Shown in pieces: positions 52,039 to 52,562 of a stretch of DNA of 64,000 nucleotides. The stretch's first letter is position 1, and every line of letters starts with the position of its first letter. Source of the DNA: Patescibacteria group bacterium (lineage in GTDB: Bacteria; Patescibacteriota; Patescibacteriia; Patescibacteriales; UBA12465); assembly GCA_041650775.1 (NCBI GenBank), contig JBAZKO010000002.1:27930-91929 (forward strand), in the 5' to 3' direction. The notes below the pieces were generated by a model that worked only from the letters and a program-made list of their open reading frames with translations, was not told the DNA's origin and did no database searches. The position numbers and the translations under genes were made by a program.

Positions 52039-52067
52039 TTGACAGTCGCCAACAGCAGGTCTAATAT
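52039..52067 (+). promoter_or_regulatory. candidate sigma70 promoter (TTGACA-17 nt-TAATAT) for the non-coding unit
   Basis: TTGACA at 52039-52044 and TAATAT at 52062-52067. Caveat: GACAGTCGCC (52041-52050) also matches the 5' part of E. coli RNase P RNA as I remember it. This element could therefore be RNA-internal rather than a promoter. Confidence 0.4.
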
Positions 52068-52073
52068 AAAAAT

Positions 52074-52562
52074 ACAAAAATAGAAAGTCATGGAATTTAG
52101 TCCTTTTTATCTTTATCCGGCCTTCTTTGTAACTTCCATATTGTCCATAGCGATGTCAGCTTGCCGTTGTGATGTTCCCGCCGCCGTTGAGGTGCAGTTG
52201 TTTAACGGAGAATTATCTTTCGTAAGAGATATTAGCGACACTTTACTACCACCAGTTGATTGGCTATGCCCGGAGGTGCAAAGGAAAAAAGGCCAAATTA
52301 GGCATAATGCGCAGGGAAAAGGCTTAAGTATCAAGCCGGCTTGTTATGCCGATAACCAAACAATTTTTTCCCAGCCGATAAAGTTAACCGGCGAGAAATT
52401 CGCTAGCTTTATTAGCACGTCATCTTCCTTAAAGTTACTATATTATATATAGTAGCCGCTCTAAATATCTTGAGGCGATTATCAAGATTACTCGAAAAAT
52501 AAAACAACTTTTAAGAAGTTGAAAACAAGCACCCCCATAAACAACTCCGGGGGTGTTTTTTC
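52074..52562 (+). ncRNA. candidate large structured ncRNA; core resembles bacterial RNase P RNA (rnpB) but is atypical; 5' boundary uncertain
   Basis: Eight collinear blocks match my memory of E. coli M1 / the type-A consensus:
- GAAAGTC at 52083
- TCCATAG at 52144
- GTGCA at 52192
- AACGGAGAA at 52204
- GTAAGAG at 52222
- TTACTACCACC at 52243
- CCCGGAG..CAA..GGCCAAATTAGG at 52269-52302
- CCGGCTT at 52336

The TCCATAG-to-GTGCA spacing is 41 nt here against 42 nt in E. coli. Four further hairpins lie at 52391-52403, 52434-52456, 52467-52488 and 52505-52521, followed by a terminator. I could not trace P1-P4 closure by hand. Confidence 0.4.
52530..52562 (+). terminator. rho-independent terminator upstream of polA
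   Basis: caccccc (52530-52536) pairs with gggggtg (52549-52555) and is followed by tttttt (52556-52561). Confidence 0.7.

Follow-up and report, generated by a model that had tools for sequence, protein, structure and literature searches.

A small open reading frame joined to an apparently novel structured RNA domain upstream of polA in Patescibacteria

The locus upstream of polA

The window, meaning the whole 64,000-nt stretch of Patescibacteria DNA that was analysed, contains a 713-nt gap between a solute-binding-protein gene on the minus strand (50540-51910) and the divergent polA gene on the plus strand (52624-55455), in the size and arrangement given by an earlier note on this DNA. The gap is best explained as harbouring an independent transcription unit of ~490 nt, ~52074-52561 on the plus strand. 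The predicted parts of the unit, and the promoter that bounds it on the side of polA, are as follows.

52039-52067, plus strand: unit promoter, with -35 TTGACA at 52039-44, a 17-nt spacer and -10 TAATAT at 52062-67
52090-52452, plus strand: small open reading frame (ORF) that has 120 codons in the window, of which the first ~67 (52090-52293) are the maintained part
52301-52562, plus strand: RNA domain, an H-type pseudoknot followed by stem P3, three hairpins and the terminator
52527-52561, plus strand: intrinsic terminator, with a 10-bp stem (52527-36/52549-58), a 12-nt loop and U6 at 52556-61
52530-36/52549-55, plus strand: core of the terminator stem, CACCCCC/GGGGGUG
52589-52626, plus strand: polA promoter, outside the unit, with -35-like TGGCTC at 52589-94, extended -10 TG-c-TAAAAT at 52609-17, 6 nt, and ATG at 52624

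The TTGACA-17-TAATAT element is present where the earlier note had placed it; it matches the consensus at 10 of 12 positions and is the top promoter-like site of the region, in which promoter-like sites show no overall enrichment (3 found, 2.5 expected). Its -10 box is kept in L002, a relative 91% identical to the window, and a TTGACA/CTTGAT-N17-TAATAT box lies 20-26 nt upstream of the small-ORF ATG in 13/13 comparable units of relatives, where a leader of ~20 nt separates promoter and ORF. We infer a transcription start near 52074. The GC-stem and U-tract terminator claimed for 52530-52561 is likewise real and identical in every letter in L002. Nearly all relatives carry a plus-strand terminator at the equivalent spot when judged by eye, and a strict scan for perfect-stem terminators is positive in 31/78 of their loci; a simple scanner with a loop limit of 8 nt overlooks the window terminator because its loop is longer. 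The unit combines -35 and -10 boxes of the sigma-70 type, their 17-nt spacing lying within the usual 16-18 nt, with an intrinsic terminator on the same strand, both kept in position in relatives. Transcript ends, ORF translation and possible processing are predictions from the sequence.

Across about 170 syntenic loci of relatives, namely Candidatus Falkowbacteria and their allies, a cassette recurs directly upstream of polA; it is composed of the promoter, the short leader, a small ORF, the structured RNA domain and a terminator of the intrinsic type. As far as these loci indicate, its distribution within the Patescibacteria is limited to one narrow clade, made up of Candidatus Falkowbacteria and their relatives. 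When the complete element was used as query, blastn and nhmmer matched, among 160 syntenic loci, only the window's own contig and L002, and the wider homology of the element is visible only in its structure. Wherever it occurs, the unit directly precedes polA and points the same way, also when the neighbour gene on the opposite side is a different one, and in all five loci reached through the small protein rather than through polA, polA was found 250-310 nt downstream. Some close relatives have no unit upstream of polA, the gap measuring 18-130 nt; two others (L104 and L008) carry tandem duplicates, each copy with its own promoter and terminator.

The promoter of polA is conserved in ~40 relatives. 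The pattern TGnTAnAnT precedes the polA ATG by 5-8 nt in 58/78 loci and an SD-like tetramer is found in 2/78, so that transcription from this promoter would give a leaderless mRNA. An apparently leaderless polA with a conserved extended -10 promoter is an observation that helps the annotation of these genomes.

The RNA domain of the 3' half

The 3' half of the unit is predicted to fold into the following elements.

52301-09/52342-50, plus strand: P1, GGCAUAAUG/UGUUAUGCC, with two G.U pairs; the pseudoknot hairpin spans 52301-52350
52311-12/52339-40, plus strand: P1b, GC/GC
Within the pseudoknot hairpin, plus strand: purine internal loop AGGGAAAA
52321-25/52333-37, plus strand: P2, GGCUU/AAGCC
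52314-20/52366-72, plus strand: pseudoknot helix GGGAAAA/UUUUCCC, spanning 52314-52372
52351-65, plus strand: A-rich linker GAUAACCAAACAAUU, between P1 and the 3' strand of the pseudoknot
52374-83/52407-16, plus strand: stem P3, GCCGAUAAAG/CUUUAUUAGC, spanning 52374-52416
52390-94/52400-04, plus strand: hairpin GGCGA/UCGCU enclosed by P3
52421-34, plus strand: conserved block CAUCUUCCUUAAAG, preceding P4-P6 (region 52421-52521)
52434-43/52447-56, plus strand: P4
52467-73/52482-88, plus strand: P5
52505-11/52515-21, plus strand: P6

Comparison of folding energies with shuffled sequences confines structure to the 3' part of the unit (z = -5.1 and -1.9). The hairpin run reported there by the earlier note exists and is far more stable than chance, the value of -5.1 belonging to 52421-52562; the segments 52074-52185 (z = +1.7) and 52186-52295 (z = +1.4) fold worse than their shuffles. 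The GGGAAAA/UUUUCCC helix is chosen by the minimum free energy fold and was also found by a repeat search. The motif GCCGATAA, described earlier as duplicated, does have a copy at 52348, but its second copy starts at 52374 and not at 52373.

The helices of the pseudoknot hairpin covary among relatives. Counts for P1 and P2 were taken from hits of a covariance model, R1: 91.9% of the alignment cells are paired, in an alignment that was itself fitted to the model and in which 8/14 rows are training sequences. Changes on both sides occur in 12/17 pairs, a result equalled by 0/500 shuffles, and in helix 1 they affect 7/11 pairs; slid registers of P1/P2 are paired in 32-44% of cells. In L083, one of the relatives, the P1 sequence is wholly different and pairs nonetheless. 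The G.U pairs are strand-specific, and they fix the strand of the motif as plus. The loop and the downstream run that form the pseudoknot are present among relatives in eight complementary sequence versions. Single instances of this complementarity are not significant; summed over 22 instances it reaches 133, against a shuffle mean of 102 and a maximum of 118 (0/2000). As the instances are phylogenetically related, this test and the shuffles of P1 and P2 overstate independence.

Stem P3 pairs in seven sequence versions among relatives. The change of CG to UA at 52376-77 in L002 turns a C.A mismatch and a G.U wobble of P3 into U-A and A-U pairs, and an inner block, GGCGAGAAAU(U)C.CUAG, is common to the window and L008. 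Further changes in L002 are a cluster of four at 52444-47, which sits in the P4 loop, and one at 52515, which replaces a U.G pair of P6 with U-A. The window and L002 differ at 3/110 positions (2.7%) in 52453-52562, against a divergence of 11% in the ORF and ~22% at third codon positions of polA. In three relatives (L007, L009 and L013) the RNA domain can be aligned by blastn and the middle of the ORF cannot. Relatives contain a related block, GUUCUUUYWAA(AGGAU), with a stem behind it. Matches to the mini form of the motif score only 20-25 bits, about as high as unrelated viral palindromes that were pre-selected for the P1 sequence. Homology among the RNA domains of the pseudoknot group and those of 'type C' and 'group A' is suggested by their architecture and by short blocks read by eye.

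The domain corresponds to no described family among those we searched. The Rfam 15 covariance models gave only noise on terminators at the window locus, the mini form of L037 and the group A form of L005; gathering and permissive thresholds, applied also to the whole window and to the loci of 16 relatives, yielded only tRNAs and terminator noise. Rfam pseudoknot families had no match at the window locus or in the mini form of L037, and no description of the pseudoknot motif was found in the searchable literature. The 3' domain is thus apparently a conserved, novel structured RNA domain with a covarying pseudoknot. The earlier note had offered an unrelated novel structured RNA as a fallback, which holds for the 3' part of the unit but not for the 5' part, a maintained ORF.

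Other origins of the palindrome were considered. A dif/Xer site, an integron attC site or a promoter palindrome does not accord with the variable spacing of the P1 arms, the both-sided changes, the plus-specific G.U pairs and the pseudoknot partner. A phage origin was rejected as well: the pattern of the large form had no viral match, and 105 viral matches to the mini P1 palindrome came without the rest of the motif. Model R1 also matches the window at 11520-11607 (E 0.02), but this second hit falls within a gene on the minus strand and is regarded as spurious.

The small open reading frame of the 5' half

The earlier note had listed the reality of the 120-codon ORF as one possibility. The frame does exist and its 5' part behaves as a maintained small ORF, but it has only 67 codons in L002, where it ends with TAA at the equivalent of 52294, 8 nt ahead of P1. 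In the window the frame beyond ~67 codons reads through the RNA domain. Since L002 differs by a stop codon and a 1-nt insertion, the last 53 codons of the window ORF are probably non-coding, or one of the two assemblies is in error.

Small ORFs of 45-120 codons are found in the cassettes of relatives, always open, with a hydrophobic N-terminus and a poorly conserved sequence. The frame is open from the ATG, 20-26 nt after the -10 box, to the RNA motif in 13/13 comparable units. The chance of this is 0.2-4% per unit (P = 0.002-0.04), and the other frames carry 2-10 stops; for the window ORF the chance is 2.8%, with 3 and 6 stops in the other two frames. The N-terminal ~20 residues are hydrophobic in all 20 small ORFs compared (~22 residues in the window), the N-terminal hydrophobicity test giving the small-ORF peptides a mean hydropathy of 1.20 against -0.08.

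Between the window and L002 the ORF has a dN/dS of 0.45, derived from only 20 substitutions, and a dS of 0.19 against 0.43 for polA; the related small-ORF family shows dN/dS values of 0.2-0.66, with 0.09 for the polA control. The 20 substitutions fall on the three codon positions as 4:8:8, showing no third-position excess (8:5:32 in the polA control). These phase counts and the truncation in L002 would suggest a non-coding ORF, a view rejected for the first 67 codons because of the dN/dS comparison and the test of ORF maintenance.

The protein itself is isolated. A Pfam search of the window ORF found no match, a search of 5.8 billion proteins with the 120-aa ORF matched only the 67-aa version of L002, and no homology to the small ORFs of relatives was detectable by tblastn against all loci or with profiles of the relatives' ORFs. 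The peptide resemblances 'LLPPVDWLC' and 'MEISSF', spotted by eye, fall below significance. In sister groups the small ORFs do constitute a protein family, with tblastn E values reaching 1e-29 and dN/dS under 1. The ORF of the window is preceded by a weak, closely spaced SD-like AGAAAG; that of group A has a good SD.

The position of the stop codon relative to the RNA domain differs between groups. In the group A variant UAA lies 3-5 nt ahead of the stem in 6/6 loci; in the pseudoknot group the stops fall between -8 and about +150 nt, counted from P1, a spread that weakens a strict model of translation coupling.

Reading of the cassette and its alternatives

We consider the unit to be the transcript of a dual-function or translation-gated cassette, in which a small ORF is joined to a selected 3' RNA domain, and which is neither an RNase P RNA nor a leader of polA (probability about 0.6). 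Its 5' ~220 nt would be a translated small ORF whose peptide, with a hydrophobic and membrane-directed N-terminus, may be a small membrane protein, the frame being held open by selection while its sequence evolves fast. The 3' ~260 nt would form a multi-helix domain: the H-type pseudoknot (P1, an optional P2, the loop-to-downstream helix and the A-rich linker), P3, three hairpins and the terminator. As the ORF stops at, just before or inside this domain, ribosomes finishing the ORF must unwind P1, and translation and folding of the pseudoknot domain might be mutually exclusive, the transcript then acting as a dual-function or translation-gated RNA. The 3' domain is presumably the main selected element, which would either stabilise the mRNA or persist as a regulatory RNA derived from its 3' end.

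Several known systems offer partial parallels. Dual-function RNAs that combine a small ORF with a regulatory domain include RNAIII/hld of Staphylococcus aureus, SgrS/SgrT and SR1/SR1P of Bacillus; RNAIII is about 514 nt long with its ORF towards the 5' end. The unit resembles them as a transcript of a few hundred nucleotides with its own promoter and terminator, with an ORF and a hairpin-rich domain better conserved than the peptide, and with a pyrimidine-rich stretch beside the terminator (CACCCCC in the window, ACCCCCUCAA or UUUUCUCAAAA in relatives). It differs from them in that its domain opens with an H-type pseudoknot overlapping the end of the ORF, and in being confined to a few dozen CPR genomes, strictly adjoining polA. 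In the mRNA of arfA, too, the ORF runs into a conserved stem, a 3' hairpin that is processed. Here the small-ORF 3' end also meets a conserved stem, the position of the stop is variable and the end of the ORF is linked to the structure; the peptides, however, are unrelated, and RNase III processing and ribosome rescue are features of arfA.

H-type pseudoknots occur in recoding elements and in riboswitch aptamers such as preQ1-II and SAM-II, where an A-rich linker beside an A-U-rich stem favours minor-groove triples. The pseudoknot of the unit shares with these the pairing of a loop with a downstream pyrimidine run by way of such a linker and stem. In contrast to them, it is placed at the stop of a small ORF or beyond it, with further helices and a terminator coming next, instead of standing upstream of a regulated gene. 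The units also lack the conserved slippery heptamer and downstream frame of recoding pseudoknots, and programmed frameshifting or readthrough was rejected for want of a conserved slippery site or second frame among relatives.

A bolder version of the main reading, which we put forward tentatively and regard as rather doubtful, holds that the 3' ~260 nt, an H-type pseudoknot with four or five more helices, represents a new class of structured regulatory RNA, fused to a fast-evolving, membrane-directed small ORF, obligately placed before polA in Falkowbacteria-like CPR bacteria and working as a translation-gated riboregulator. The RNA domain would change its fold when a ribosome reaches the ORF's end, and the output might be a 3'-derived sRNA, control of the adjacent leaderless polA promoter, or the binding of a ligand or protein. 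If true, membrane or translation status would be coupled to DNA repair and replication in organisms whose regulatory repertoires are minimal. Genomes of ~1 Mb rarely keep 200-300 nt of functionless non-coding structure, which makes the cassette a good candidate for a riboregulator or dual-function RNA, and for the first lineage-specific one described in Falkowbacteria. What the main reading provides is modest but real: a conserved, covarying pseudoknot domain outside Rfam 15 that is joined to a small ORF and stands in tight linkage to polA, in uncultured bacteria that have been little studied and whose genomes are very small.

The tandem duplicates in L104 and L008, the rapid turnover of sequence and the patchy presence at one chromosomal site are also what might be expected of a locus resembling type I toxin-antitoxin systems, in which the peptide would be a membrane toxin, the 3' structure would control the stability or translation of its mRNA, and an antisense RNA would be the putative antitoxin. 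The mRNAs of such toxins (among them hok, aapA1, tisB and txpA) are, like the unit, strongly structured and encode a small hydrophobic peptide; they too occur in tandem copies, evolve fast and are patchily distributed. The small ORFs of 45-120 codons with hydrophobic N-termini, the strong promoter and the heavily structured mRNA tail agree with this explanation, and the pairing of a purine loop with a pyrimidine run recalls the sequestration of an SD by an anti-SD. We nevertheless consider it unlikely. Neither an antisense antitoxin nor a conserved antisense promoter or RNA gene was identified, the promoter-like sites on the minus strand of the region all being weak (9/12); hydrophobicity is limited to the N-terminal third, and most of the ORFs exceed the usual length of a type I toxin. 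The pseudoknot sits at the 3' end of the ORF and not at the ribosome-binding site or translation start, the strict linkage to polA is atypical for toxin-antitoxin loci, and Pfam gave no match.

Two simpler explanations each keep one half of the unit and discard the other. If the whole ~490-nt transcript were a non-coding RNA with an incidental ORF, the missing codon periodicity of the window/L002 substitutions (4:8:8 and 5:3:5), the interruption of the ORF in L002, the lack of protein homologues beyond L002 and the weak SD would follow, as would a dS in the ORF less than half that of polA, which implies constraint at the nucleotide level. This is improbable given the frame open to the RNA motif in 13/13 units at a 0.2-4% chance each, the hydrophobic N-terminus in all of them and the real protein family of the sister groups; moreover, 5' 220 nt less structured than shuffles are the opposite of a structured non-coding RNA. 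The converse explanation, an ordinary orphan small-protein gene in which the 3' domain amounts to a long 3' UTR that ends in a terminator and contains palindromes by chance, is equally hard to sustain. The source MAG annotation does read "hypothetical protein", P1 is an AT-rich palindrome resembling a -10 box and common elsewhere, and individual pseudoknot matches are unremarkable. P1, P2 and P3 nevertheless covary with both-sided changes and plus-specific G.U pairs, and the summed pseudoknot complementarity lies beyond all shuffles. Within the unit the 3' region is conserved best, changing far more slowly than the neutral rate, with z = -5.1 for 52421-52562, and a tail of 200-300 nt is kept in genomes of ~1 Mb, one of them complete at 977 kb.

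Attenuators classically consist of a leader-peptide-like ORF with RNA structures and a terminator behind it, as the unit does, and the constant co-oriented position immediately upstream of polA, even with a differing opposite neighbour, would suit a polA leader with regulated termination at 52527-52561. Such a leader is very improbable. polA has a conserved leaderless-type promoter of its own, which speaks against the unit as its leader, and a read-through transcript would carry no ribosome-binding site for polA, which has no SD. The unit is also missing in some close relatives, tandem units have a promoter and terminator each, and no alternative antiterminator pairing was found.

The unit is not an RNase P RNA, and the chance that it is a strongly remodelled one, the headline of the earlier note, is practically nil. 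The case for it consisted of eight short strings in the order of conserved RNase P segments, of the known divergence of RNase P RNAs in CPR bacteria, and of the lack of another rnpB within the 64-kb window. All eight strings are found at the coordinates given for them, but their resemblance to RNase P is no more than expected by chance. In RNase P, helix P4 is formed by GAAAGUCCGG-type and CCGGCUU-type strands with near-invariant nucleotides. The earlier note had itself remarked that GAAAGUC is followed by AUGG and that a proper P4 could not be traced, rightly so, as the two strands here can form at most 4 bp and both are mutated in L002 (GAAAGUC to GAAGGUC, CCGGCUU to CCAGCUU). All eight blocks are substituted in L002, with 13/28 changes in 33% of the length, and are no better conserved than their flanks; the conserved regions CR-I to CR-V of RNase P RNA, by comparison, evolve under strong purifying selection. 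RNase P RNA has a core rich in paired helices (P1-P12 and others). The supposed core here coincides with an open reading frame and is less stably folded than shuffled sequence (z = +1.7, +1.4), and CCGGCUU and GGCCAAAUUAGG are explained by the P1/P2 hairpin described above, to which they belong or which they adjoin. The absence of the unit in some close relatives and its duplication in others do not fit an essential single-copy gene.

RNase P RNAs of CPR bacteria are known to have diverged so far that they miss default thresholds, and were detected once thresholds were lowered (PMC8172020). At this locus, the search with Rfam RNase P models proposed in the earlier note (RF00010, RF00011 and the archaeal RF00373) gave no match at E ≤ 10 on 51900-52640, a search space of 741 nt, and none in the whole window at gathering score or at E ≤ 1. 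Canonical rnpB core strings are absent from the 272 loci examined. Type A RNase P RNA (RF00010) and the unit are alike in size (about 400-500 nt), in having their own promoter and terminator and in a few strings of 5-11 nt; the unit differs by lacking a covariance match and the P1-P4 of RNase P, by the unstructured ORF in place of the core, and by being dispensable and duplicated. Removal of this false lead means that the locus says nothing on RNase P evolution in CPR bacteria. An exact GGAAAGTCC at 19932, which gave no RNA match, lies inside a gene of 1310 aa.

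The unit and its recurrence upstream of polA

The 713-nt gap between two divergent genes, a solute-binding-protein gene and polA, holds a predicted transcript of about 490 nt. The promoter, the ORF at 52090-52452, the run of 3' hairpins and the terminator described in an earlier note are all present, and the terminator is a strong one.

50540-51910, minus strand: solute-binding-protein gene (SBP_bac_1)
52039-52067, plus strand: unit promoter, TTGACA-17-TAATAT
52527-36/52549-58, plus strand: stem of the intrinsic terminator, followed by U6
52624-55455, plus strand: polA

The unit is thus delimited by predicted signals of its own, independently of the promoter of polA. 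Its 120-codon ORF is annotated in the source Patescibacteria MAG as hypothetical protein WC458_01360.

Relatives were fetched through the N-terminus of PolA, 80 loci each from species-representative genomes and from metagenomes, and most belong to Candidatus Falkowbacteria or Patescibacteria. Many records (L005, L011-L013, L018-L020 and others) bear the title 'uncultured Gammaproteobacteria bacterium' or 'Bdellovibrionales'; their PolA N-termini are at least 80% identical to those of Patescibacteria/Falkowbacteria MAGs, and the titles are probably taxonomic mislabels in TPA assemblies. Neither blastn nor nhmmer matches the whole element in the 160 PolA-retrieved loci, yet reading the gaps 5' of polA revealed a shared layout: a promoter of the form TTGACA/CTTGAT-N17-TAATAT is followed by 20-26 nt of leader, by a small ORF starting with ATG, by a structured block, by an intrinsic terminator on the plus strand and, last, by the conserved polA promoter. 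With the small protein instead of polA as query, five loci were fetched, one of them a complete 977-kb genome, and all five have polA 250-310 nt downstream. The gene flanking the unit on the side away from polA differs among relatives. Some relatives lack the unit and have a gap of 18-130 nt upstream of polA; others carry tandem units, each with its own promoter and terminator. Two complete tandem units (promoter, small ORF, pseudoknot, terminator) precede polA in L104 (2025-2530 and 2535-2990) and in L008 (3108-3480 and 3554-3960).

The small ORF

Comparison of the units shows that the predicted small ORF is maintained across relatives. The frame is open from the ATG to the RNA motif in 13 of 13 comparable units (chance 0.2-4% each), the other frames of which contain 2-10 stops, and the N-terminal ~20 residues are hydrophobic in 20 of 20 small ORFs. 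Such peptides would suit a type I toxin-like locus, the best surviving of the alternatives but an unlikely one. Between the window and L002, the closest relative (a 1006-nt JGI contig, 91% identical over the element), dN/dS is 0.45 over the first 67 codons; it is 0.2-0.66 in a small-protein family at the equivalent position in sister lineages. The L002 stop lies 8 nt before P1, the first helix of the RNA domain, which is the commonest arrangement among relatives, about half of whose units have stops at -8 to +10.

Substitution phase counts between the window and the L002 ORF (4:8:8 and 5:3:5, against 8:5:32 in the polA control), together with a stop and a 1-nt insertion in L002, could be read as those of a non-coding ORF. 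Given the frame maintenance, the hydrophobicity, dN/dS and the stop position, that reading is too strong, and a transcript acting purely as non-coding RNA is slightly less probable again than a toxin-like locus. On the same grounds the maintained ORF is put at ~67 codons; the extra 53 window codons run through the RNA domain and are probably non-functional as coding sequence. Only two differences break the ORF (window 52294-52298, L002 233-240), and they adjoin each other just 5' of P1: a C-to-T change creating TAA, and the insertion, which falls in a short run of T. They may be genuine or may reflect misassembly of one record.

A search of 5.8 billion proteins gives the sister-lineage family (L021, L026, L029, L031, L032, L035, L037, L040, L115, L163-L167) just 17 members; every one is annotated as hypothetical, and Pfam has no match for the family. 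Its proteins of ~86-119 aa follow the pattern M..K.FLVLILSFGPFSQ...APIFAG...RQKxKLxG, and its genes always lie upstream of polA, their 3' ends overlapping the RNA hairpin. The window peptide has no detectable homology to relatives' other small ORFs, of which it is a positional analogue by virtue of the common RNA motif and promoter layout. An additional ORF of 45-46 codons is called in L165 (2285-2422), L166 (2618-2755) and L167 (2305-2445), where 500-740 nt separate a hydrolase gene from the small ORF.

A conserved RNA domain with a pseudoknot at its start

The 3' RNA domain is conserved and covarying, and begins with a predicted pseudoknot. The two G.U pairs in P1 fix its strand as plus.

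52301-52350, plus strand: hairpin of P1 (GGCAUAAUG with UGUUAUGCC, two G.U pairs), P1b (GC with GC), purine internal loop (AGGGAAAA) and P2 (GGCUU with AAGCC)
52374-83 with 52407-16, plus strand: P3 stem
3' of P3: conserved block CAUCUUCCUUAAAG (GUUCUUUYWAA in relatives), then hairpins P4-P6, then the terminator

The hairpin has counterparts in L007, L008 (two copies), L009, L013 and L104 (two copies). R1, a covariance model built from eight counterparts, recovered the non-training members L083, L035, L037, L040, L026 and L029, all just 5' of polA. In the 14-sequence R1 alignment, which is fitted to the model, contains 8 training sequences and consists of phylogenetically related instances, 91.9% of cells are paired and 12 of 17 pairs show changes on both sides. 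These values were reached by none of 500 shuffles, and slid registers reduce pairing to 32-44%.

Every instance has a pyrimidine run, 10-25 nt past P1, to which the purines of its loop are complementary.

Loop sequences and their downstream partners
Locus; loop; downstream
Window (52314-20 / 52366-72); GGGAAAA; UUUUCCC
L013; GGAAAGA; UCUUUCC
L037; GAGGAA; UUCCUC
L008b; UGGGG; CCCCA
L104b; GGGAA; UUCCC
Type C loci; GAGAAU / GAGAAC; AUUCUC / GUUCUC

The match is unremarkable in each single locus; the longest complementary runs of 22 instances add up to 133 (shuffles: mean 102, maximum 118, 0 of 2000 reaching it). Together with an A-rich linker (GAUAACCAAACAAUU in the window), the loop helix makes a predicted H-type pseudoknot. 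Mini-form variants score 20-25 bits with R1, not above viral palindromes that are unrelated but had been selected for carrying the P1 sequence, and are assigned by synteny, homologous ORF and pseudoknot partner rather than by score. The palindrome GGTATAATA-N8-20-TATTATACC occurs in 105 viral stretches (contigs L168-L247), which were ruled out as members, their flanks having neither partner nor linker. A second R1 match in the window (11520-11607, 18.8 bits, E 0.02) falls inside a minus-strand gene (10939-11586) and is regarded as spurious.

P3 pairs in seven different sequence versions among relatives, and adjacent L002 changes at 52376-77 replace C.A (a mismatch) with U-A and G.U (a wobble) with A-U. 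Further 3', the region 52421-52562 folds with z = -5.1; four clustered L002 changes (52444-47) lie within the P4 loop, and in P6 another (52515) replaces U.G with U-A. L002 diverges from the window by 2.7% in 52453-52562 and by 9-11% in 52090-52452, compared with ~22% at polA third codon positions.

At the equivalent position, group A loci carry a different and larger three-way-junction RNA (L003 3725-3960, L004 3692-3960, L005 3639-3960, L046 3748-3960, L114 1152-1510, L118 2743-2930), in the order GGGCCCAUCGC..CCUGGA..UCCUAGGAAUAGUCUAGA..UCUAGACUAAUGCGGUGGGCC, then GUUCUUUCAAU and ACCCCCUCAA, then a terminator. The ORF upstream (45-55 codons, MRLYVLSSFI..FVNQ) has a good SD, and in 6 of 6 loci its UAA is found 3-5 nt before the RNA. 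That the three RNA-domain variants are homologous is suggested by architecture and short common blocks read by eye. This three-way-junction RNA is not in Rfam (L005 unit searched), which gave no family match for any form tested (window locus, mini form, group A), and literature searches found no published description of the domain.

We infer that the unit makes an RNA that is dual-function or translation-gated. Because the ORF ends at or within P1, a terminating ribosome would have to open the pseudoknot, so that the RNA could not be translated and folded at the same time. Selection probably acts mainly on the RNA domain, whose conservation exceeds that of the peptide and whose role might be to stabilise the mRNA or to remain as an RNA derived from the 3' end. 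An ordinary orphan gene trailed by a long 3' UTR, in which this conservation would be unexpected, is as improbable as a purely non-coding RNA.

The polA promoter, the RNase P reading and other features

The constant position upstream of polA might suggest an attenuator of that gene, a decidedly improbable reading. Relatives share the polA promoter consensus cTTTGCyC-N17-TGnTAAAAT-N6-ATG. Of 78 loci, 58 have the extended -10 box 5-8 nt 5' of the ATG, and only 2 have an SD-like tetramer.

52589-52626, plus strand: polA promoter in the window (TGGCTC 52589-94, TG 52609-10, TAAAAT 52612-17)

Since the -10 box is conserved near the ATG and SD sequences are nearly absent, polA very probably has its own promoter and a leaderless mRNA, and the upstream unit would therefore be a separate transcript and not the polA leader.

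The earlier note had proposed a remodelled RNase P RNA from eight short strings, which are physically there. RNase P families gave no match at gathering score across the whole window, at E<=10 in a search space restricted to 741 nt, or at E<=1 in the entire window. The permissive searches carry weight because diverged CPR RNase P RNAs, which miss default thresholds, were recovered at lowered ones (Lui et al. 2021, PMC8172020). All eight blocks have at least one substitution in L002, including both supposed P4 strands (GAAAGUC to GAAGGUC, CCGGCUU to CCAGCUU); 13 of 28 window-L002 changes fall inside the blocks, which make up 33% of the span. The 5' 220 nt, with most blocks, is less stable than shuffled sequence (z = +1.7 and +1.4). 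These window searches, the L002 comparison and the folding test lead us to reject the RNase P reading, which keeps next to no probability.

Elsewhere in the window, four tRNA genes cluster within 380 nt (58729-59107), and a single tRNA lies at 41307-41380, its end overlapped by a sub-threshold rimP-leader-like match (41355-41491) that is probably noise. A 361-aa protein (49445-50530, minus strand), with HAMP as its only recognised domain, carries a long, charged tail that resembles a coiled coil and repeats KVKERT.ELE and then KETKE; its gene is flanked by the solute-binding-protein gene and by a periplasmic-binding-protein / PAS-HisKA kinase / response-regulator cluster.
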